64,000 nucleotides of DNA from an uncultured Armatimonadia bacterium. Its GTDB lineage: Bacteria > Armatimonadota > Zipacnadia > Zipacnadales > UBA11051. The notes beneath the pieces are model-generated. The model did not search any database. It was not told the DNA's origin and saw only the letters and a list, made by a program, of their open reading frames with translations. Location: contig CAYMIN010000013.1 of the NCBI GenBank assembly GCA_964390495.1, positions 28,081 to 92,080 of the forward strand, written 5' to 3'. This document shows, piece by piece, positions 7,674 to 32,768 of this stretch. The position numbers were made by a program, and so were the translations under genes. Numbering within the stretch: position 1 is the stretch's first letter; each line of letters starts with the position of its first letter.

Positions 7674-7703
7674 TTGGCAAGCCACAATCCGGTGTGATAT
7701 AAT
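7674..7703 (+). promoter_or_regulatory. candidate sigma70 promoter with extended -10 (TTGGCA-18-TGaTATAAT) driving the 7.8-26 kb cluster
   Basis: TTGGCA at 7674-7679 and TG-n-TATAAT at 7695-7703. It is the only strong consensus -10 in the 340-bp gap upstream of the first cargo gene and leaves a leader of about 113 nt. Confidence 0.4.
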
Positions 7704-7816: not shown

Positions 7817-10800
7817 TTGGCGCTGGCCGGTCAACATAGAGTGCATCATAGCACCTGCCGAGGAGTGATTGTCTTGCAGAAGGGCCACACCAGACCTCTG
7901 GCTTCACTACTGCTCTTCTGTGTGCTGGTCGCAGTCTTACTTATCATATCATCCGTCGCCTCCACGCAGTCCTCACGCCTAGGTGCTGCGGGGCCGCTGT
8001 TGTCCCTCGACCAAATGCAGCGCCAGCCTCTGCTGCCCGGCCAGACTCCCGAGTTCTTCCGCTGCGCTACCTGCCCGGACGGCCAGGTCACTACCCAGCA
8101 GACCCCCGGCCCGGACCCCGATCAGAATATTACCGCCAAGGCCACCGCCTCTCAAGAGTGGGAGCCGAACACCGCCCCGGTAGTTGGTCAGAACCGCATC
8201 GCCTTTGCCAGCAACGGCGAAGACCTCATCAACAACCAAACCGGAATCGAGGGGCCTGACGGCTTCATTGACCCGACCTTGCCCGAGAATCCCGACTTCG
8301 ACCTCTGGCTGATGCGCCCTGATGGCACCCAACAGCAGAAGGTCATTGACCTGCCCGGCGACCAGCGCGATCCGGCTTTCGATCCCGGCGGCCGCCTCCT
8401 CGCCTATGCCTCCAACCACAGCGGCACTTATCAGATCTATACCGTCGAGGTCAGTACAGGTGTCACCCGCAGGATCACCACTCCGGAGGGCGGCGCCGGC
8501 AACAAGCGCCACCCCACCTGGTCAGCCGACAGCAACTGGATCGCCTTCCAATGCGACCGCCGCGGCAATTGGGACATCTTCAAGATTCTCTCCAACGGCG
8601 CTAGCGCCGAAATCCCGCTGGCCTTCAGCTCTAATGACGAGGTCGCGCCGGCCTGGTCGCCGACAACTCCCTATATCGCCTACCAAGTAACCATCAACAA
8701 TGTCAGCCGCATCTTCTCCATGGACACTGAGGGCGGCAACAGGACCCAACTCAGCAACGGCGGCGGCAACCCCAATGCCAACGACATTGACCCCGCCTGG
8801 CAGCCGCTCGGCCAGTCCTTGGTATTCGCTTCCGACCGCCTCGTCCCCGATTCCGGTGACACTACCAATGACTACAATATCTGGACCATGTCAGCCACTG
8901 GCGAGATCATCACCGGCGCCGCCTCGCTGATAAGCTCTGATGATCCCAACGACGTCTATGACGATAAAGACCCCACCTGGACGCCTGATCTGACCCAGCG
9001 CGCCCAGACCCGCTTCGTTTTCGCCTCTAACCGCCCGGTAGATGCCAACGACACCAGTGAACCCGACATCTGGGCCACCTTCGAAGAGGACATCCTGCCG
9101 CCGGAGCTGACCAAGGCTCCCGGCCGCGAAAATGCCTTACCGTGGGTTGACATTCGCAATCCAGCCCCCGGGGCCGACATCACCATCTCTGTGAGCGTCT
9201 ATGACCGCGACTCCGGTGTCGCCTCGGTCGTCGCCCTGCTCAAAGATCCCGAGATGAAGCTCTATGACTGGTCGCTTGCTATATTCGAGCCTACCAATAA
9301 CCTCGGCTGGCAAGCACTCGAGCGTGACTGCGTAATAGTTGATGGCAAGGAGCTTCTCGATGACGGGGTGCCTCCGGACCAGACGGCGGGCGATGGCATC
9401 TTCACCGGCACTTACACCACGCTGCCCACCCCGCGCGATTACATCATAGACATCGCCACAGTAGATGTCGTCGGCAACGGGATGACCTATGATGACATCT
9501 ATGGTTTCAGCACAGTTACCTTCAATCCCAATGACCGTGTCCTGTTTGTTGATGACTACTGTGAGGGCCAGGCCTTCATCTACCTGACTGGTATCAATAA
9601 CGACTGGCCGGCGCAGTTCCCGGTGGAGAGTTACTACCGCTGCAACCCCGGCTATTACCCGGGTCTTGAGCGCACGATTGACTTTGACAGCATCATCGCC
9701 TGGGCGGTTGATTACGACACTTCGGGATTTGGCGATGGACCAGCCGAAGAGCATTGCACGAGCGTGGACATCGAGGGCCATTACGATGTCTGGCGCATCC
9801 TTTGTCGCGGCCCCATCCCGGACACCATTCTCCGCAACTATCTCCCGACCGTGGAGTACCAGTTGGTGCCCGAAGACGCGCTGGCCGACCCGACCTGGGC
9901 GCTGCCCACCCGCGAAGTGCTGGTGGCCAACCGCGCCGTCATCTGGGCCGCCCCGCATACCGGTGATGTCTGGATAGCTGACGGCACCATCATGGATGCC
10001 GCGGTGCAAGGCCAGCTCAAGAACTTCCTGAACCAGGGCGGACGCCTCTTTATCTCCGGCGAAGACCTCGCCTGGGCCCTGACGATGGCTGGACGCACGA
10101 GCAACGACTTCCTCAGCAGATACCTGCGCGCCCAGTACCTAAGTGACGTCGCCGGCGGCGACGGCTTCACCGTTGAGGGCAACAACGACCCCTACAGCCC
10201 GGTATCGTGGGATGCCTGGGTGGGAACCGGCGCAAGCCATCCGGGCGTCGCGCCCAACTGGTGGCCCGACTGCTGCAACCCAGTGGCTCTTCTTACACCT
10301 GTAGCCAGTACAGCAGGCTATAGCGACGCTGCCGACCACCTTGGCCGGGGACGGGGTGGCTCGGTCCGCGCCGACGGCATCGTGCCCAGCGGAGACGTCA
10401 AGCTCTACGGCTACGGCGGCTTTGGCGGCACCGGCGCTGCCACGTGGTATGCCGACCCCGCCACCGGGGCGCACGTTGTCTATCTGGCCTTCGGCTTTGA
10501 AGACATCCATCGCAGCTACCGGCTCAGTGGGACGAGTCCCCCTCCTCATTGCCATAACCACCGCAGCCACCTGTTCCACAATTTCTTGTGCTGGGCCCGC
10601 ACCGCCGCCTTCCAAGGACGAGTAGTCTCCATCAGCGAAGGCGGCCAGCCGGTCACCGACCCTGAGCCGATCGTCGTCATCACCCAGGGCAACAACCGCT
10701 ACGCCGTCCGCTGCCAGAAGGACGGCACCTATGTAATCCAGGGCGTCAAGTCCGGCCAGTATTCCATGCAGGTGATACGCGTCGGCTACGAGATTGACCA

Positions 10801-13072
10801 CGCCGAGGGCGAGCACGCTCACGGCGGCTGGGCTCCCGTACAGGTGGACTTCGCCATCAAAGAAGCCCAGCCCGGCGCCATCGCCGGAACCGTGGTTTCT
10901 GAGGCAAGTGGCGATCCCATCGCCAATGTCACCGTCACTGTGTATGCGAAACCTGAACCCGAACCCGAGCCGGAACCGGGGCAGGTCGTTGCGGCCCAGG
11001 ACGAAGGCGACATCCCGATTGAGGACCTGGGCGACCCCGTTGTTCCACCGGTGCACACGGGCGCTGACGGCACCTTCGTGATTCCCGAGGTCCCGGTCGG
11101 CGACTATATCGTGGTCGCTGACGGCACCGCTGCCGGCTACGGTACCCAGCAGCTCGAGACCACGGTCACCCCGGGCGACAGCGCCAACCTTGCCTTTGTG
11201 CTCGGCGCTGCCGCCGGAGCTCTTGAGGTCCATGTCACCGCCGCCGACACTGGCGACGACATTGAGAATGCCACCATTCAGGTGCTTGACGAGAATGGCC
11301 AGCAGGTGGTTGTGCCTGCTCCCATGACCGGCCCGTCCGGCATCGTCAATATTCCTTTGCCTGCCGGCGACTACCAGGTGCGCGCCGCCTCCGCCGGCTA
11401 CGAAGCCTCGACCCTGCAGGGCGTTGTGGTGGTCTCTCAGGAGACCACACATCTCGACATCGCCCTCAACCGCGTGGCCGACGGCGCTGTCTCCGGCAAG
11501 GTCACCTCCGCTACCACCGGCCAACCCGTTGGTGACGTGCTCATCAGAGTTCTCTCCGGCGGCACTGTCAGAGCCACAGGCTATACCAGCGATCAGTTCA
11601 CCGACCCCGGCGACGGTACGCCGTCGTACAATTACTTTATACCTGACGTGCCCGCCGGCGAGGTCACTGTCCAGCCGGTCGTCTCCGGCTACGACCCACA
11701 GCCCGACCAGCGCGTTGTCACCGTCGTCAGTGGTGAGACCATCACCGGCGTCAGCTTCGTGCTGGAAAGCCTGCACGTCTTCCCCCAGGGCCTGCAGCTC
11801 ATCTCGCTGCCCTGGGACTTCAGCAGTGGCCAGAGCGACAAAGACCCGGCCAACTTGCTCGGGATTCCCGCTAGCCAGTTCCTCATGGCGACTTGGGAGA
11901 CCAGCACCGCCCGCTACCGCATTTATCCCAACGCCCCTGCCGACCGCTTCCGCCTCGGCACCGGCTACTGGCTGAATCTGGCGAGTCCCGCCGACCTGGC
12001 TCAGGAGGGCACCCCGCCCCTAACCGTTCACCAGATCTCACTACTTGCCGGCTGGAACCTGATTGGGGACCCGTTCCTATCCACTATCGACTTCTACGCA
12101 ACCAATATCCGCGCCCAGAACGGCACTCTGTACTCGGTCCAGGAGGCCCTGGCCCAGAATCTGCTCGGCTCCGGCCTGTTCGCCTATATGCTGGGCGGCT
12201 ACCGCATCGTCTCTGCCTTGACGCCCTATGTCGGCTACTGGCTCTACGCCAACGATCCCTGCAAGTTGGTCATTGATGAAAGCACGGATACAATGGCGGT
12301 AGGCACCCAGGCCGCGGCACCGGCTGTACCCGTGCCTGCCGATGGTTGGCTGTTACAGTTGCAGACCACGGCTACCGTTGCCGGCCTGCAGGACACCGCA
12401 GCCTATTTGGGCACCGCTGCCGGCGCCTCCGACGATTTCGATCCCGGTCTCGACCAGGCCAAGCCGCCGGTGCCGATTAGTGGTGGCTATGTCTATCTGT
12501 CACTAGGGGGCGCTAGTGGTCCGGATATGGCAGTTGACATCCGTAGTCAGCAGTCCAGTCAACAGCAGTGGGACCTGGAGGTGCAGACCAACCTCAGCGG
12601 CCAGCCGATTGAGATATCCTGGCCCGACATGTCCGGCCTGCCGCCGGCGACACAGCCGATTTTGACCGATCTGGCCACCGGCAAGCGGCTATACATGCGC
12701 ACCAACCGCGCTTATAGCTTCGCGGCGGACGGCACCAACCGCAGACTGCGGGTGAGCACCTCAGCGGCGGGTGTCGGCCAGTTGGCGATAACTGCCGCAG
12801 CCGCCTCCACCACACCCGCCGCGGCCACTGTCAGCTACACCCTGTCGCGCAACGCTCAAGTCAGCATTGATGTGTACAATATCAGTGGTCGTCTCATCAG
12901 CCGCGTGCTCGAGGAGCAGACCCAGACCGCCGGTCTGCAGTCGGTGGCCTGGCATGGCCGCAACAATGCCGGCGTCAAGGTGCCCAATGGCCGCTATCTG
13001 GTCCGCATCACCGCCCGCACCGACGACGGTCAGCAGGCCCAGGCTCTGACCCAGATGGCGATAACTCGTTAA
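7817..13072 (+). CDS. giant secreted multidomain protein (1751 aa): signal peptide, TolB-like PD40 beta-propeller, GATase1-like region, CarboxypepD_reg-like beta-sandwich repeats, PEPEPEPEP linker, shared tripartite C-terminal tail ending in FlgD-Ig/T9SS-type CTD
   Basis: TTG start at 7817. An alternative TTG at 7874 follows a GAGGAG RBS and gives the canonical signal peptide MQKGHTRPLASLLLFCVLVAVLLIISSVAS. PD40-like repeats are present (LLAYASNHSGTYQIYTVEVSTG..., WIAFQCDRRGNWDIFKI). CarboxypepD_reg-like segments are present (DGTYVIQGVKSGQYSMQV, GTFVIPEVPVGDYIVVADGTAAGY). The C-terminal 430 aa are paralogous to the tails of the ORFs at 16470 and 19882. Confidence 0.8.
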   Translation: MALAGQHRVHHSTCRGVIVLQKGHTRPLASLLLFCVLVAVLLIISSVASTQSSRLGAAGPLLSLDQMQRQPLLPGQTPEFFRCATCPDGQVTTQQTPGPDPDQNITAKATASQEWEPNTAPVVGQNRIAFASNGEDLINNQTGIEGPDGFIDPTLPENPDFDLWLMRPDGTQQQKVIDLPGDQRDPAFDPGGRLLAYASNHSGTYQIYTVEVSTGVTRRITTPEGGAGNKRHPTWSADSNWIAFQCDRRGNWDIFKILSNGASAEIPLAFSSNDEVAPAWSPTTPYIAYQVTINNVSRIFSMDTEGGNRTQLSNGGGNPNANDIDPAWQPLGQSLVFASDRLVPDSGDTTNDYNIWTMSATGEIITGAASLISSDDPNDVYDDKDPTWTPDLTQRAQTRFVFASNRPVDANDTSEPDIWATFEEDILPPELTKAPGRENALPWVDIRNPAPGADITISVSVYDRDSGVASVVALLKDPEMKLYDWSLAIFEPTNNLGWQALERDCVIVDGKELLDDGVPPDQTAGDGIFTGTYTTLPTPRDYIIDIATVDVVGNGMTYDDIYGFSTVTFNPNDRVLFVDDYCEGQAFIYLTGINNDWPAQFPVESYYRCNPGYYPGLERTIDFDSIIAWAVDYDTSGFGDGPAEEHCTSVDIEGHYDVWRILCRGPIPDTILRNYLPTVEYQLVPEDALADPTWALPTREVLVANRAVIWAAPHTGDVWIADGTIMDAAVQGQLKNFLNQGGRLFISGEDLAWALTMAGRTSNDFLSRYLRAQYLSDVAGGDGFTVEGNNDPYSPVSWDAWVGTGASHPGVAPNWWPDCCNPVALLTPVASTAGYSDAADHLGRGRGGSVRADGIVPSGDVKLYGYGGFGGTGAATWYADPATGAHVVYLAFGFEDIHRSYRLSGTSPPPHCHNHRSHLFHNFLCWARTAAFQGRVVSISEGGQPVTDPEPIVVITQGNNRYAVRCQKDGTYVIQGVKSGQYSMQVIRVGYEIDHAEGEHAHGGWAPVQVDFAIKEAQPGAIAGTVVSEASGDPIANVTVTVYAKPEPEPEPEPGQVVAAQDEGDIPIEDLGDPVVPPVHTGADGTFVIPEVPVGDYIVVADGTAAGYGTQQLETTVTPGDSANLAFVLGAAAGALEVHVTAADTGDDIENATIQVLDENGQQVVVPAPMTGPSGIVNIPLPAGDYQVRAASAGYEASTLQGVVVVSQETTHLDIALNRVADGAVSGKVTSATTGQPVGDVLIRVLSGGTVRATGYTSDQFTDPGDGTPSYNYFIPDVPAGEVTVQPVVSGYDPQPDQRVVTVVSGETITGVSFVLESLHVFPQGLQLISLPWDFSSGQSDKDPANLLGIPASQFLMATWETSTARYRIYPNAPADRFRLGTGYWLNLASPADLAQEGTPPLTVHQISLLAGWNLIGDPFLSTIDFYATNIRAQNGTLYSVQEALAQNLLGSGLFAYMLGGYRIVSALTPYVGYWLYANDPCKLVIDESTDTMAVGTQAAAPAVPVPADGWLLQLQTTATVAGLQDTAAYLGTAAGASDDFDPGLDQAKPPVPISGGYVYLSLGGASGPDMAVDIRSQQSSQQQWDLEVQTNLSGQPIEISWPDMSGLPPATQPILTDLATGKRLYMRTNRAYSFAADGTNRRLRVSTSAAGVGQLAITAAAASTTPAAATVSYTLSRNAQVSIDVYNISGRLISRVLEEQTQTAGLQSVAWHGRNNAGVKVPNGRYLVRITARTDDGQQAQALTQMAITR

Positions 13073-13228
13073 CCGGCCGCACTAACGCGGCGAATCAGCC
13101 GCGATGCTCTTCACCAGTTGGTGCCGTTGAGTCCCGGGGGGCTTTTACAGACCAAATCACGTATGTTATACTGCCTCAGTGGCAGTAGTGGTCCATACCA
13201 TTTCTGCGTCGGAGGGAGAGCTATCTCG

Positions 13229-15151
13229 ATGCAGCACATCCGAAGAAGTTCGCTAGTCCGCAAGCTGGTTTACTTCCTGATCACAGCGATAATCCTTCCC
13301 TGCGGCATATCCTTCGGCCAGGGAACGATGTCATCAGGTGTGGGACGGACCGTCACCTCCTGTGTGGTCTTGCCCTTCACCAATGCCACCGGCCTCGATG
13401 ACCCTCTGCTGCCGGACAAAGCGGCCGCGGCCGTCGCGCTCTCCCTCGAGGACTCACGAGAGTTCGTGGTCACCTCCACCCTCGACCTCAACCGCGAGAT
13501 GGCCGCGCTCGGCATCCAGTCGCCGGTCACCAAGGGCGAGCAGGTCAGGCTTGGCGAGGCGCTGAGGGTCGAGAAAGTCCTTACCGGTACCATCACTGAA
13601 CTCTCTGTCAAGAAAGACAGCGGCCAGGCCCGCTGCAGCATGGAGATTAAGATGCTCAGCGTCAACGTTCAGGACTTCCTCGACGGCGCTTTGGCAACTG
13701 CAAGCACCAGCCCGATACCCGGCTGGAGCGGTGACATCACCAAGGTGGTCAACGACGCCATGCGCGCCGCCGCCGAGGCCGCCGTCAACCAGATGTTGGC
13801 CGGGCGCGTTCGCCGCGGCCATGTGGACCTCGTTACCGACCGTGGACAAGTCAACATCGGCCTCGGCATCGGGGACGGTATTGAGGTCGGCAGTGAGTTA
13901 CTGGTAATGCGTCCCACGTGGTCCGCGGACCTGGAAAAGGTAGTCATGCGCCGCGTTGGCACAATCTCCGTCGGCGAAGTGTACACGGATATGGCGTGGG
14001 CTGGTGTTGTTGATGGCTCGACCCCTCAGACCGGCGACCGGGTCTATAAGCTCTACAAGCCGCCGGTGCGCAAGAAGGCCGAACACCGGGCCAAGTCCAG
14101 AAAGAGCCTCACCCAGGCCGTCGCCGCTATCGCCCTACTCGTCGGCATCTACGCGGTGGGTACTGGCACTTCCATCGCCAGTGGCTCTGTGCTCAAAGGC
14201 AACCTCTCTCAGGCCACCTGCGGAGCCGACCCCACCGTGGTTCTGGAGTTGCACAGCAGCAATACCGAGCGCGAGAGAACCCACGGCTGGGTTATCTATC
14301 GGGGCAACAGCCCTTACTTCCCCCCGACCCCTTACAACATGATTGACGTCATCGAGATCAAGGATCTGCCCTCCAACCGCTACAGTGACGACCCCAATCT
14401 CACCGAGTACATTGAGGACTTTGAGTTCACATACTTCTATTTCGTCGAAGAAGGCGAACAGGAAGAAGCCGACGTTACCGCCTCCTGGAACCACCTGCCG
14501 ATGAGCCCGGGCACCAGGTACTACTACACCGTGCGCAGAATTATTGAGCCGCTGCGCCCGCCGGGGTACAACCCGCCGATAACCCCCCAGCAGGCGGAAG
14601 AGCCGGTGGAGCCGACTTTTGAGCTCGAGGTCGAAGGCGGCTCCGGCTTGTCCGAGGCCAGCAACCATTTCGGACCGGTTACATACTTCTTGCCGCCTCA
14701 GCTTTCCAGTCCCACTCACGGCGCTCCTAACCAGGATGTCTCCAATGTCCGCTTCACCTGGCAGGTGACCACCGGTGCGGACCTGTACAAGGTCGAGCTC
14801 TTTGGGCCTACCGATCCCAACGGCAGAGGCGGACGCTACTGGGAAAGCCCCGAACTCCGTGCCAGCGGTGGCGCCGCGACCATGAGCACATCATTCAGCG
14901 TCGCTAACCCGGCTGCCGGGCTTACTCCCGACACCACCTACTACTGGCGTGTCGGGGCCCGCGCTAGCGGCGACGCCGCCGACCCGCGTAACCAGGACCT
15001 GAACAAAGTCGGCTACCTGTACAGCCAGATGCGGGAGTTCCATACCGTCGTACAGCCTCCCGGCCCCTTGGAGGCTAAACAAGACAACGCCAAACCGGCC
15101 ACCCACAAGCCCGGCTTCTGGCGGGTCAAACGTGGTGGTGTTGGCCGCTGA
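13229..15151 (+). CDS. membrane protein: N-terminal signal/anchor, LpoB/CsgG/TolB-N-like periplasmic domain, central TM helix, C-terminal FN3-like domain(s)
   Basis: The likely start is the ATG at 13229 (MQHIRRSSLVRKLVYFLITAIILPCG) after GGAGGGAG; the ORF track begins at 13118. VLPFTNATGLDD...FVVTSTLDLNREMAALG...VEKVLTGTITE matches the VxVLPFxNxTG...F.VV.R..L...GAD.vltG.It signature of LpoB/CsgG-type domains. A TM helix follows (AVAAIALLVGIYAVGTG). An FN3-like region sits near the C-terminus (VRFTWQVTTGADLYKVELFGP...TTYYWRVGAR). It is a paralogue of the gene at 22847..23911. Confidence 0.6.
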   Translation: MQHIRRSSLVRKLVYFLITAIILPCGISFGQGTMSSGVGRTVTSCVVLPFTNATGLDDPLLPDKAAAAVALSLEDSREFVVTSTLDLNREMAALGIQSPVTKGEQVRLGEALRVEKVLTGTITELSVKKDSGQARCSMEIKMLSVNVQDFLDGALATASTSPIPGWSGDITKVVNDAMRAAAEAAVNQMLAGRVRRGHVDLVTDRGQVNIGLGIGDGIEVGSELLVMRPTWSADLEKVVMRRVGTISVGEVYTDMAWAGVVDGSTPQTGDRVYKLYKPPVRKKAEHRAKSRKSLTQAVAAIALLVGIYAVGTGTSIASGSVLKGNLSQATCGADPTVVLELHSSNTERERTHGWVIYRGNSPYFPPTPYNMIDVIEIKDLPSNRYSDDPNLTEYIEDFEFTYFYFVEEGEQEEADVTASWNHLPMSPGTRYYYTVRRIIEPLRPPGYNPPITPQQAEEPVEPTFELEVEGGSGLSEASNHFGPVTYFLPPQLSSPTHGAPNQDVSNVRFTWQVTTGADLYKVELFGPTDPNGRGGRYWESPELRASGGAATMSTSFSVANPAAGLTPDTTYYWRVGARASGDAADPRNQDLNKVGYLYSQMREFHTVVQPPGPLEAKQDNAKPATHKPGFWRVKRGGVGR

Positions 15152-15163
15152 CGCGGAGCCGAC

Positions 15164-16372
15164 ATGCAATGGCTATGGCCGCCCCGACAGGCGGCAATCG
15201 GATTCGTCGCAGTTGTTGTCGGGTCACTGCTGTTCCTTGACAATGCGTTCGCCGCTGCACGCCCCAAGTGGGCTGTGATGGCATACCTCAGCGGGCAGGG
15301 CGGCCTGGAGCAGGAAGCCGCGGCCTATTGGCAGACCCTAATCGAAGCCGCCGCCGAGGGCTACTGCGCCGCCGCCGTGCAGATTGACGGGCCACACCTC
15401 TGCGCCAGGTGGCTGGCCGTCCCCGGTAAGCGCTGCAAATACCAGCCGCTGGGGGTTGTCAATATGGGTGCCCAGCCGGCCCTGACGGAGTTCTTGCAGT
15501 GGGCGCGCCGCAGTCTCGCGGCGGACCGCTATCTGCTCATCGTCATGGGGCACGGTTCCGGTCTGGCCACCCTCGCGCCGCAGCTTAGTGGCGTGGCCTT
15601 TGATGGTGGCAGTAGCGATACCTTGAGCATCGCTGAGCTGTCCGCCGCCCTGGCCGAAACGCAACCTGCGGACCGGCCCATCGAGCTGGTATCTCTGCAG
15701 GCCTGCTACGCCGCCAGCCTTGAGGTGGCCTACAGCCTGCGGCAGACGGCCAATTACCTGGTGGCCTCGCCCGACCGGGTGGCCAGTCCGGGTTTGCCCT
15801 GGGCCCAACTGCTGCCGCGATTGAGCGGCTGCGAGGACGGCTATGCCGCCGTCCAGGTCCTGTATGGCGAATACGAGCACGCACTTGTCGGGTTTGATTT
15901 ACGGGCGGCGGCTGATGTCACAGCGCACTTGACGGCTTTAGTCGAGGCCTTGAGCGCGGATGTGCGCGCCAATGCGCCGGTCCTGCGTCTGATACGCAGC
16001 CGCAGTCCGAACTGGGGATATAGGGACGAGATGTGCGACCTGCTCTATCTGGCCCATGTGCTGCACCGGGTGGCCGGCAGCAGGCAAGTCGCTGAGTGTG
16101 CCGGCGAATTCGAGCTAAGCCTGGAGCGCGCGATGGTCCCGCGGCCCGGCCGTCGGACGGCGAACGCAGAGGCCCATGTGGGGAATCTGGGAATCTTCTT
16201 CCCGGCCACGTGGGAACCGGTCCCGACACACTATGGCAGCACTTATCGTCTGGCTGATGAAACCGGGTGGGCCGAGTTCCTGAAGGCCTACTACGACATC
16301 ACCGCCGGCCAGCTTATCGGCTCCGGCATCCAGGTGCCGCCGGCGCGGCCGGGCTCAACTGGCGTACTGTAG
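15164..16372 (+). CDS. clostripain-like (peptidase C11, clan CD) cysteine peptidase with N-terminal signal/anchor
   Basis: Caspase-fold catalytic dyad context: LLIVMGHGSG (His-Gly) and LVSLQACYAASLEVAYSL (Ala-Cys), spaced as in C11 clostripain. The N-terminus WAVMAYLSGQGGLEQEA resembles the C11 W.v.vY..gDNnLe block. N-terminal hydrophobic segment AAIGFVAVVVGSLLFL. The start is tightly coupled, 12 nt after the previous stop. Confidence 0.6.
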   Translation: MQWLWPPRQAAIGFVAVVVGSLLFLDNAFAAARPKWAVMAYLSGQGGLEQEAAAYWQTLIEAAAEGYCAAAVQIDGPHLCARWLAVPGKRCKYQPLGVVNMGAQPALTEFLQWARRSLAADRYLLIVMGHGSGLATLAPQLSGVAFDGGSSDTLSIAELSAALAETQPADRPIELVSLQACYAASLEVAYSLRQTANYLVASPDRVASPGLPWAQLLPRLSGCEDGYAAVQVLYGEYEHALVGFDLRAAADVTAHLTALVEALSADVRANAPVLRLIRSRSPNWGYRDEMCDLLYLAHVLHRVAGSRQVAECAGEFELSLERAMVPRPGRRTANAEAHVGNLGIFFPATWEPVPTHYGSTYRLADETGWAEFLKAYYDITAGQLIGSGIQVPPARPGSTGVL

Positions 16373-16469
16373 AGAACCAGTCATAATATCTACATAACAT
16401 ATCTGATGCCACCGCACTGTACTGCGCAGGGCCTGCACCGGCGCCTTACAGTGGGGAGGAGGAATCCCG

Positions 16470-19400
16470 TTGAGGCATCATGGCCGCCCTGCAAAAACTC
16501 GCCTGCGAACTGCCTTCGCAATCGCCCTGGTCGCCCTGCTCTTGGCGGGTGGTGCAGCGACCCAGGCAGCCCCCCAGGTCTCCGACGATCTGGCCGGACC
16601 GCTGCGCGCAGTTGCTGCTGCGGCGGCCTCGGGTCACACCGCGCCGGCCGCTGTCAGCCCCCTGGTGCGTATCCAGGGCGGGTTGGTGCAGGTTGAGATC
16701 ATCTTCCGCACTTCTTTGGCAGCCTTCTCCACCAATCTGGCTGCCTACGGTGGCCGCGTGGAGATTCGCTCAGGCAACCGCGTCCAGGCTTGGCTGCCTG
16801 CCGGCTCCCTCAATGCTGTTGCTGAGTTGCTCGAGGTGGCCCAGATCCGCCTACCGCGCTGCCCGGTGCCGCTCCAGGGCTACGGGGGGGCCTCTTCCGA
16901 GGGCGTCCAACTCACGGCCGCCACTGCCATGCACACCAATAGCATCACCGGCTCCGGCGTCAAGGTGGCGGTCATAGATACGGGCTTTGGCGGCTACGAC
17001 GAAGCGGAGATCCCGGGCGTCGGTGAGGGCTCCGGGCGCACGATATCATTCAGCAGCGGCGGCGGAATGGGTGGCTCGCAGCACGGCACAGCCGTGGCCG
17101 AGGTAGTCGCCGACATGGCTCCCGAGGCCGAGATCTATCTGCTTGCAGTTGACACCAACCTCGCCATCGAGCAGGCTATCAACTACGTGCGCGACAACGC
17201 TTTTGGCGTTGCGGTTATGTCGCTAGGGTCCTTCGATGGCCCCTACGACGGCACTCATTCGGTATCGCAGAAGGTGAATGTCGCGCGGGCCTCGGGCGTT
17301 TTCTGGGTGAATGCCGCCGGTAATCACGCCCAGCGCCACTACGAAGGTGACTGGACCGATCGCAACGGCAATCGCTTCCACGAGTGGGGCTTCGGTCACG
17401 AGGACATGGACCTGAGCCTGTCGCGCGGCACTTTCCAGGCCTTCCTCAGTTGGTATCAAACCGCCGGCGACACCACCAACCACGATTATGACTTGGTGCT
17501 CTTCGACGCCGGCGGCACGGAGGTCACCAGGTCCGCGGTGACCCAGAACGGCGACGACCCGCCGGACGAGGTGCTGGTGGCGTACGTGCCTGAGACGGCG
17601 AACTATTCCCTGCGTATTGAGCGCATGTCACCCGACGTAATCCCTGCCAATGATCGTTTCCAGCTCTTCCTTCCCGATGTTGATGTGGAGAGCATACACC
17701 GAGTACCCGAACATAGTCTGCCGGTTCCCGCCGAAGCCGCCGGTGCCTTCACCGTGGGCGCGACCCGCGGCTCCCTGCGCATTATCGAGGGTGATGCGGT
17801 GCTGCCGATAGATGCAATCGAGCAATACAGCTCCCGCGGCCCCTCACTTAGCGGGCTGCTCAAGCCCGATCTATGCGGACCCGATTACGTCACCACCAGC
17901 CTGGTCGGCACGGCCTATGATCCGTTCGCCGGAACCTCGGCGGCAGCACCGCACGTCGCCGGCGGCGCCGCCTTGCTGCTCTCTGAGGACAGCACCAGGA
18001 CCCCGGCGATGCTCACCACTATCCTGCAGAATCTGGCCGTCAAAGACATGCTGGTAACCGACCCGTCCACCGGCCAGAGGCTACCCGACAACACTTACGG
18101 TTACGGTCGGCTGAGACTGCGGGTCGGCACCGACACTATCCCTCCGGAGATTGGCATCAGCTTCCCGCACAATGGCAGCACCATCACTGACGCCACCCCA
18201 ACGATAGTCGCCACTATTACCGATATCGGCAGCGGCGTGGACCAGTCCACAATCGAAGTCGAACTGGACGGGAACCTGGTCGCGTGGAATTATGTGCCCA
18301 GCAACGGCTTGCTCACATATACGGTCCCGCCTGAGGCCGCGCTCACTCGCAGTCGCCACACCTTGACCATTGATGCGCAGGACTATGACGGCAATGCCGC
18401 CACCACCGCGGTAAGCAATTTCCGCGTCACTGCGCCCTCAATTGACGCCGGGTTGCACCTGATCAGCTTGCCCTACCCGGGTCTGGCCGCTGCCGACCCC
18501 TCAGTGGTATTCGGCATCCCATACGACCAGTTGCAGTTGGCACGCTGGGTACCCAGCGACGCCCGGCCGGTCAAGTACCATATCTACATGGACGAATATG
18601 CCACCTTCGACCCGCCGGATGCCCGCGGCACTAATGCCATAGTCAGCGACCCGCCTGCCGGCCTCGGATATTTCGTGCGCCTGCCCAAACAGTGCACCCT
18701 CAACACCGGCGCCGCCGGCCCCCTGATCGGCATCGACTCGTACCAGATCAAGCTCATCTACGGAACCGATGCCCCACGCGGCTGGAACCTTATCGGTAAC
18801 CCCTATGAGTCGGTGGTTGACTGGGGTACGGTTAGCTTCATTGCCGAGGGCCAGCGCTATGACCTCCGCGAAGCGATGTCTGAAGATGTCGAGCTCACGG
18901 AGGGGGTGCTGTTCGACTTCATCTCCACGGCCACCGGCGGCTATTACAGCTTCTCCTCCGATCCCTCCGCAGATGTCCTCGAGTACATGCGCGGCTACTG
19001 GGTGCATGTCTTGCGCGACGCAACCCTGGAGATGTATAACCCGGCAATCACTGCTAGCGTCGGCGCCAGGCCCGCTCGCGCCAGCTCAGCTAGCGCCCCG
19101 ACCAAGGACCAGTGGACGCTCAAGCTCTCTGCTGTCAGCGGCCAGCACCAGGACCCTGTCAACTATATCGGGGTACGCCCCGAAGCCAGCCAGGGCTACG
19201 ACATCGGTCTCGACATCAGTGAGCCGCCTGCGATCGCCCAGAGCCTGGCGCTTTACATGCCCCAGCCCGATTGGGGCAGCCGTGCCGGACATTATGTGCG
19301 CGATCTGCGCAGCAGCCTGAGTGCCCGCCAGGAGTGGGATGTTGAGGTCGCCTCCGCACTCGCCCAAGCTCCCGTCACCTTGACCTGGAGCGAGCTTAAC

Positions 19401-32051: not shown

Positions 32052-32768
32052 CTAGTGTCCTGCTCGGCGCAACAGTTCCTCGATATTCACCCCGTCTATC
32101 TTCAGGCCGCGGATGTTGCAGCGCTCGATGGATACATCGGAAAGGTCCGAGTATCTAATGCTGGTACGCCGCAGGTCCGCGTTTTCCATCGTGCTGAATG
32201 AGAAGTCGGTGTTGGAGAAACGCCCCTGGCTGAATTCACAGTGGCTCCAACGCCCGTACTTGGCGGTGAGGTACTCGGCCCGCAGATTCCGCAGCTCGAC
32301 CCGCTCCAGATACCAGTCCGTGCCGCTGCAGCGCAGCAGATGCAGGTCATCGCTCTCGCTGTATTCCCAGATGATATCGTCCATTTCGCAGTCATAGAAC
32401 CGCGTGCCGTCGAAGTCTATCCGCTCGAAGCGGCCGTACTTGAAGCTACCGGTATGGAACGATGGGTAGTCGAAGGTCATCTGGCTGAAGCTGGGCTTGT
32501 GCATCTTTGACTGCGTGAAGCCGACCTCGGAGAAGCTGCAGTTCGTGAACTTTCCGTGCGTGAAGTTGCACCGCTCGAACAGAGCGTCCCGCAGGTTGAG
32601 GTCGCGGAACTCCGGGCTATTCATGGTCAGGTCCAAGAACTCCGGCTCAGTCAGGTCGGTGTCCTCGAAGTGCAGTGGCGCGCCCTCTGCGGTGCCCGGT
32701 CCGGCGCTGACTACAATGCCCATCATCATGACGCCCACGACCCACATGGCCTTCCGCAAAGCTGACAT
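32052..32768 (-). CDS. secreted pentapeptide-repeat protein, embedded in ilv operon
   Basis: Signal peptide MWVVGVMMMGIVVSAGPGTAEG, then tandem A(D/N)LxX pentapeptides (LNLRDALFERCNFTHGKFTNCSFSEVGFTQSK...). Confidence 0.7.
   Translation of the reverse strand: MSALRKAMWVVGVMMMGIVVSAGPGTAEGAPLHFEDTDLTEPEFLDLTMNSPEFRDLNLRDALFERCNFTHGKFTNCSFSEVGFTQSKMHKPSFSQMTFDYPSFHTGSFKYGRFERIDFDGTRFYDCEMDDIIWEYSESDDLHLLRCSGTDWYLERVELRNLRAEYLTAKYGRWSHCEFSQGRFSNTDFSFSTMENADLRRTSIRYSDLSDVSIERCNIRGLKIDGVNIEELLRRAGH

Follow-up and report, generated by a model that had tools for sequence, protein, structure and literature searches.

A three-domain C-terminal tail ending in a FlgD Ig-like domain is shared by three exported proteins of a conserved Armatimonadota gene cluster

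Type A C-terminal domains (CTDs) of the type IX secretion system (T9SS) are found at the extreme C-terminus of multidomain proteins exported by Sec, and they generally start with a Pro-x-Pro motif (PNP or PNPF). The CTDs of PorU, which is itself a clan CD peptidase, and of PorZ are retained, and their binding partners are the barrels PorV and PorQ. To our knowledge T9SS is confined to the Fibrobacteres, Chlorobi and Bacteroidetes (FCB) group, and we know of no T9SS described in Armatimonadota, which lie outside that group. Vpr (PDB 8jmw) and the pre-peptidase C-terminal domains we take to be a further comparison, as C-terminal beta-sandwich extensions of secreted subtilases. In this paper we describe a 64,000 nucleotide stretch of DNA, here called the window, from an uncultured Armatimonadia bacterium (GenBank assembly GCA_964390495.1, contig CAYMIN010000013.1, positions 28,081 to 92,080). 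Three of its proteins, here named A, D and E, belong to one gene cluster and end in a CTD-like domain of the FlgD_ig family, which is the last of three domains (d1, d2 and d3) of a shared C-terminal tail. Armatimonadota are a little-studied lineage of Terrabacteria and are diderm by cryo-electron microscopy (PMC11535203).

Proteins A (7817-13072, 1751 residues), D (16470-19850, 1126 residues) and E (19882-22737, 951 residues) are encoded by long open reading frames (ORFs) on the plus strand; the public gene call for A has 1732 residues and a start near 7874. Each begins with a signal peptide and closes with d1-d2-d3. The head of A consists of a PD40/TolB/tricorn-like beta-propeller and four CarboxypepD_reg domains, that of D of a Peptidase_S8 subtilase and a Big_7 Ig domain, and that of E of 500 residues for which we found no family or PDB match. 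A first-pass annotation made from the letters of the window had noticed that the last ~80 residues of the three proteins follow one pattern. The pattern is real, and it ends with the last sense codons of the three ORFs. Whereas the ends had been placed correctly, the starts lay one or two nucleotides out of frame, and the in-frame segments are 12821-13069 in A, 19602-19847 in D and 22483-22734 in E, followed by the stop codons TAA, TGA and TAG respectively. The translated ends read xVSYTLS..VSIDVYNISGRLI..WHGRNNAGVKVPNGRYLVRITAR.. together with two variants of it, one form for each protein. Over the last 92 residues the blastp identity is 51% between A and D (E 2e-28), 39% between A and E (2e-17) and 41% between D and E (2e-19).

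A hidden Markov model (HMM) built from the three ends was searched against all six-frame ORFs of 60 residues or more from the window and from 37 related loci (579 kb). It gave 74 matches, all of them at the extreme C-termini of orthologues of A, D and E, and no other protein in the window was matched. In each of the 71 complete orthologue tails d3 ends within about 10 residues of the C-terminus. The terminal residue is Arg in 63 of these tails, Pro in 6 and Gln in 2 (loci L001-L030); in the window its codons are at 13067-13069, 19845-19847 and 22732-22734. The columns that are invariant over the 71 tails are Gly, Trp and Tyr, which are typical core residues.

The last ~95 residues of A, D and E form a genuine Ig-like beta-sandwich of the FlgD_ig family, as the annotation had proposed. 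Local HMMs place d3 at residues 1658-1751 of A (12788-13069, with the stop codon next), 1032-1126 of D (19563-19847) and 856-951 of E (22447-22734). Against the PF13860 gathering score of 27 bits, A reaches 47.1 bits (residues 1668-1736) and D 37.4 bits (1037-1111), while E with 26.0 bits (866-932) is one bit short and marginal. All 71 isolated orthologous tails match PF13860 at E<=1e-3, the best at 2e-14. When the PDB sequences were searched with the tail profile, the FlgD chains 7eh9 and 7bhq came first (E ~3e-9) and the CTD of Porphyromonas gingivalis PorU came next (E 0.01). The AlphaFold2 model of the 429 residue tail of A, made from an alignment of 16 sequences, is all-beta with three domains (pLDDT 85, pTM 0.77). 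Its last domain has 7 strands within tail residues 336-427, forming an Ig/Fn3-like beta-sandwich that resembles the solved FlgD domains, and a short linker before d3 is of low confidence (pLDDT 67). The assignment to FlgD_ig thus holds on the family matches, the nearest PDB chains and the 7-strand model taken together.

The comparison with the described FlgD Ig domains (PDB 7eh9, 7bhq, 3osv, 3c12) shows how d3 is both like and unlike them. The PDB FlgD chains are 24-28% identical to the tail, with which they share the motif W-x-G-x(4-6)-G-x-x-V-x-x-G-x-Y and an Ig/Fn3-like sandwich of 7 strands. But outside the Ig domain no part of FlgD is matched by A, D or E in Pfam or NCBIfam, and d3, which follows two other beta domains, terminates large exported enzymes in no flagellar context. 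We rejected the flagellar hook-cap protein FlgD as a candidate for A, D and E, given that the equivalog models match the Ig part only, with 18-44 bits against cutoffs of 230-383 bits, and that the neighbouring genes are non-flagellar. As a domain, d3 adds a new member to a known family. We additionally observed 9-15 tandem internal FlgD_ig domains of the d3 type in the large proteins P0024, P0027, P0060, P0077, P0079, P0088, P0113, P0121 and P0122, so the d3 fold is not intrinsically a terminal tag.

The similarity between the three proteins is not confined to the ~80 residues first noticed, but spans 430-460 residues (1323-1751 of A, 661-1123 of D and 502-951 of E). Whole tails are 29-34% identical in pairs (E 1e-44 to 1e-56), and they are paralogous copies. 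In A, d1 is a beta domain of ~170 residues with the motifs LISLP, GWNLIGxPF and GYW (residues 1323-1494, positions 11783-12298), and d2 is a beta-sandwich of ~145 residues (1509-1652, positions 12341-12772). Local HMMs place d1 and d2 at residues 659-863 and 880-1026 of D (together 18444-19547) and at 502-685 and 702-850 of E (21385-22431), all on the plus strand. Neither domain was matched by a Pfam or PDB sequence family, and d1 of A has no Pfam match at E<1. Between orthologues d1, d2 and d3 are each 44-55% identical, which is comparable to the heads.

The tail also occurs outside the window. When 1.84 billion representative proteins were searched with HMMER, the tail had 1746 matches at E<=1e-30. 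Among the best 147 of these 1746 relatives, 134 carry d1-d2-d3 in order and end with them at the C-terminus, and most have a head like that of A, D or E. Other heads on the tail include LGFP repeats, a PHP domain, Big_1/invasin D3, and S8 with cadherin-like domains. Since it is found behind such varied heads, the tail is, judging from these sequence matches, a portable C-terminal unit. Word-indexed searches returned 20 mostly fragmentary matches for the tail profile and 4 fragments for a profile of the 71 CTD sequences. From its sequence, d1 looks like an unnamed and widespread domain family.

We came across d1, with its motifs GWNLIGNP and GYW, in other settings as well. Without the rest of the tail it closes a 1671 residue Capsulimonadaceae ORF (L029 5522-10534), and in pieces it occurs in a Bathyarchaeota protein (L034 9290-10678). 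In Bacteroidia it precedes T9SS CTDs (L035-L037). The beta-sandwich extensions of Bacillus Vpr-type subtilases (PDB 8jmw) differ from the tail in that the latter is carried by two non-proteases, A and E, besides the subtilase D. The PDB sequence search showed no sequence-level relation of the tail to these extensions; a fold search did match Vpr, at the level of the tail as a whole.

The annotation had further called d3 a T9SS type A tail. Here the homology stands, and membership of the type A CTDs has mixed results. A passes TIGR04183 with 26.6 bits (cutoff 23 bits), D and E have no match to it at E<1, and 32 of the 71 orthologous tails match it at E<=1e-3. At the same threshold the CTD end of the PorU model is matched by 55 of the 71 tails, and that of PorZ by 18. 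PF18962, with a gathering score of 27 bits, is not reached by A either as a full protein (14.7 bits) or as the tail alone (19.9 bits), and a single one of the 71 tails matches it at E<=1e-3. None of the 71 has PNP or P[NS]P in the stretch where the domain begins, and hhalign places the PNP motif of a Calditrichia protein opposite an Ala/Thr-rich linker of the tail.

This Calditrichia protein (L033, 2417 residues) provides the closest link to T9SS. The tail profile aligns with its last 420 residues colinearly over 376 columns (hhalign 99.6%, E 6e-24), local HMMs detect d1 (1e-12), d2 (3e-17) and d3 (3e-5) in it, and it closes with a bona fide type A CTD (TIGR04183 39.2 bits, FPNPFNP...LLIK). 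Two Bacteroidia proteins have d1 and, weakly, d2 ahead of a TIGR04183 CTD. From the colinearity of these tails, each of which ends in a type A CTD, d3 is by sequence comparison a positional homologue of the T9SS CTD. It resembles type A CTDs in size, in fold class and in its extreme C-terminal position on Sec-exported multidomain proteins; the Sec signals of A, D and E are judged from hydropathy only, and the chain ends a few residues past the last strand. It differs in that d3 chains end in Arg, whereas those of the FCB comparison proteins end in ...LLIK or ...IVVK, and in that d3 always stands behind d1-d2 in the window and the 37 related loci. The heads differ from those of PorU and PorZ (PDB 6za2, 5m11) too, and are non-homologous to them: the protease is S8 and not C25, and the propeller is PD40/tricorn-like and unlike that of PorZ. 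A 14-strand barrel like PorV or PorQ was not found in the cluster, the sole barrel of which, protein G, is LptD-like or like a TonB-dependent transporter.

No T9SS family was matched among the window proteins scanned or in the 9 kb upstream, that is, in 64 kb and 9 kb of a contig of 157 kb. A literature search found no report of T9SS in Armatimonadota. The paper on Zipacnadia reports type II secretion and flagellar systems only (PMC10290634).

We scanned GTDB with a single genome for each species and found the tail in 31 metagenome-assembled genomes (MAGs) of Armatimonadota, among them members of Armatimonadia, 'Ca. Zipacnadia', 'WS1' and Chthonomonadales and one Capsulimonadaceae MAG. At the closest, identity is 76-78%, and weak partial matches occur in Calditrichia, Bacteroidia and one Bathyarchaeota genome. 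The gene order coaE-A-B-C-D-E-F-G-uvrB-uvrC is syntenic in ~25 Armatimonadota MAGs, with orthologue identities down to 25-45%. A, D and E always co-occur, they are accompanied by B and F in every locus that reaches far enough, and by G where the contig extends to it. Loci of the Chthonomonadaceae type have A, a B-like gene, D, E and an F-like gene, and the C11 peptidase gene (C) is absent from them. N-terminal hydrophobic signals are present in all seven cluster proteins, as judged from hydropathy only. The block 7817-26044 (A to G; loci L001-L026) is a phylum-level conserved envelope gene cluster without a described function. The three proteins had been called cargo, a term that fits poorly, A, D and E being fixed members of a phylum-wide cluster of seven genes rather than arbitrary cargo.

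What might the tail do? We lean towards a retained surface-anchoring or assembly module, an explanation to which we give somewhat less than an even chance. A, D and E would be exported by Sec via their N-terminal hydrophobic signals, after which the tail would keep their heads attached to the outer membrane of the diderm cell, and B, F and G would probably be part of the same complex. The heads displayed in this way would be the beta-propeller with its CarboxypepD_reg stalk, the S8 subtilase and the 500 residue head of E. By analogy with the CTDs of PorU and PorZ, d3 would stay on the protein and dock on an outer-membrane partner. We favour an anchoring module because the whole tail, and not d3 alone, is the conserved unit, and because d1, d2 and d3 are conserved like the heads, which would be unexpected for a throw-away tag. 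It is also favoured by the constant company of the same membrane proteins, by the fact that the best T9SS-family matches of the tails are to retained CTDs (those of PorU and PorZ), and by the restriction of d3 to these three proteins throughout the 579 kb of related DNA. The portability of the tail, the signals on all seven proteins, the predicted outer-membrane barrel of G and the diderm nature of the phylum point the same way. The suggestion of a sorting or attachment signal is therefore plausible, with the three-domain tail rather than the last 80 residues as its conserved unit. Several points weigh against anchoring. The tail is homologous by sequence to one that ends, in Calditrichia and Bacteroidia, in a real and presumably cleaved T9SS signal. 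The partners in docking and complex formation are predicted ones, and the absence of T9SS genes applies to 64 kb and 9 kb only. G, which in the model is LptD-like and not PorV- or PorQ-like, may simply be the lipopolysaccharide-assembly barrel of this lineage encoded next door. Finally, the conservation of d3 at the level of the heads is no more than suggestive.

A live alternative, in our view somewhat less likely, is that d3 is instead a true T9SS-type or T9SS-like secretion signal, read by an outer-membrane translocon after export by Sec. A sortase-like clan CD peptidase would then remove d3 and either set the cargo free or let it be attached covalently; C, an exported clan CD peptidase encoded among the three tail genes, could play the role of PorU. 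This explanation accounts for the TIGR04183 matches of A and of 32 of the 71 tails, for the position of d3 at the extreme C-terminus of proteins with Sec signals, and for the alignment of the whole tail with the Calditrichia tail and the same domain order in Bacteroidia, and the short low-confidence linker before d3 would suit a removable domain. It would imply an undescribed T9SS or an analogue in Armatimonadota, whereas this phylum is outside FCB, the papers found report type II secretion and flagella only, and no T9SS family was matched in the DNA scanned. D and E fail TIGR04183, all three proteins fail PF18962, and the PNP motif is missing throughout. Moreover, the Chthonomonadaceae-type clusters keep A, D and E without the C11 gene, and d3 never appears without d1-d2 in the loci of this lineage, unlike a free-standing signal. 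A further explanation, which we think unlikely, gives d3 together with d1-d2 no targeting role: it would be an ordinary Ig-like stalk, serving secreted enzymes as a spacer or for the binding of substrates or glycans, and common to the three genes only through paralogy by duplication of the tail. The tandem internal repeats of d3-type domains elsewhere suggest a general building block, the fold matches are generic, and the invariant Gly, Trp and Tyr are typical of a domain core. Against such a stalk stand the strictly terminal position in all 71 tails and the predominance of Arg as their last residue, the recombination of the tail with unrelated heads, the specific resemblance to T9SS CTDs, and the maintenance of three copies side by side across the phylum, together with membrane proteins.

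A wider reading, in our view quite improbable, would see A to G as a self-contained machine of the envelope, so far undescribed, in a phylum of diderm Terrabacteria. Without canonical T9SS, the tail with its CTD-like last domain would both sort its cargo, namely a protease, a beta-propeller protein and a third enzyme, and dock it onto the outer membrane. B and F may serve as membrane scaffolds in such a machine, G as the outer-membrane barrel and C as an optional processing enzyme, and the whole may be evolutionarily related to the T9SS attachment complex, or a forerunner of it, outside FCB. In the sources that we searched, the three-domain tail with its two domains that lack a family appears undescribed, as do its triplication in a phylum-conserved cluster and the homology that it shows, in a phylum from which no T9SS is known, to the tails of T9SS cargo. 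T9SS CTDs serve secretome prediction and the labels given by annotation pipelines, and here a CTD-like FlgD_ig domain occurs outside the T9SS group. Whichever reading holds, the label 'T9SS sorting domain' on such proteins is no evidence of a T9SS. If anchoring is true, the tail represents a mode of surface display of an S8 protease and two large proteins in Armatimonadota; if d3 is an export signal, T9SS-like secretion is more widespread among bacteria than currently accepted.

The other proteins of the cluster are all encoded on the plus strand. B (13229-15151) has an N-terminal hydrophobic signal, an unmatched N-terminal domain, one internal transmembrane helix and Fn3-like domains, and F (22847-23911) has a signal, an unmatched N-terminal domain, a transmembrane helix and a C-terminal Fn3 domain. 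In both, the N-terminal domain has a start like VLPFxN, followed by a Lys/Arg-rich stretch, a single hydrophobic helix and the Fn3-like domains. We considered B and F as paralogues and rejected this, as they have the same architecture but no significant blastp similarity. The position of Fn3 beyond a second membrane pass in B and F is a topological puzzle. The B-like protein of a Chthonomonadaceae MAG (L028 6892-9240) has long Gly-rich runs (GGGAGGG and GGFGGIGGG) that separate its transmembrane helix from its C-terminal domain.

C (15164-16372) is an exported cysteine peptidase of the clostripain family (C11, clan CD), with a PF03415 score of 79.9 bits, and its sequence has both the His motif (MGHGSG) and the Cys motif (LQACY). 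Its candidacy as an obligatory sortase was downgraded because it is absent from Chthonomonadaceae-type clusters (L023, L028, L030) that keep A, the B-like gene, D, E and the F-like gene. G (24062-26044) is predicted to be an outer-membrane protein in which a Big_1/invasin-like Ig domain is followed by a beta-jellyroll like that of LptA and by a ~21-22-strand barrel. It ends in ...GGFTTF, and its architecture in the model is LptD-like; no sequence match of G to the LptD/OstA families was found. The combination of these three parts, with ~22 strands in the barrel, led us to reject PorV and SprA as identities for G. In A, a Pro-Glu repeat linker, KPEPEPEPEPGQ, lies between CarboxypepD_reg domains at ~10900-10960 (around residues 1030-1045).

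The cluster is flanked upstream by polA, rpsA and coaE and downstream by uvrB, uvrC, ilv genes and relA. No convincing plus-strand terminator was found between the cluster genes. A promoter-like site on the plus strand lies 5' of A at 7674-7703 (TTGGCA, an 18 nucleotide spacer and TATAAT, with TG), and it is proposed from its 11 of 12 consensus matches only. Further downstream, a gene for a pentapeptide-repeat protein (32052-32768, minus strand) is located between ilvC and the acetolactate synthase genes.

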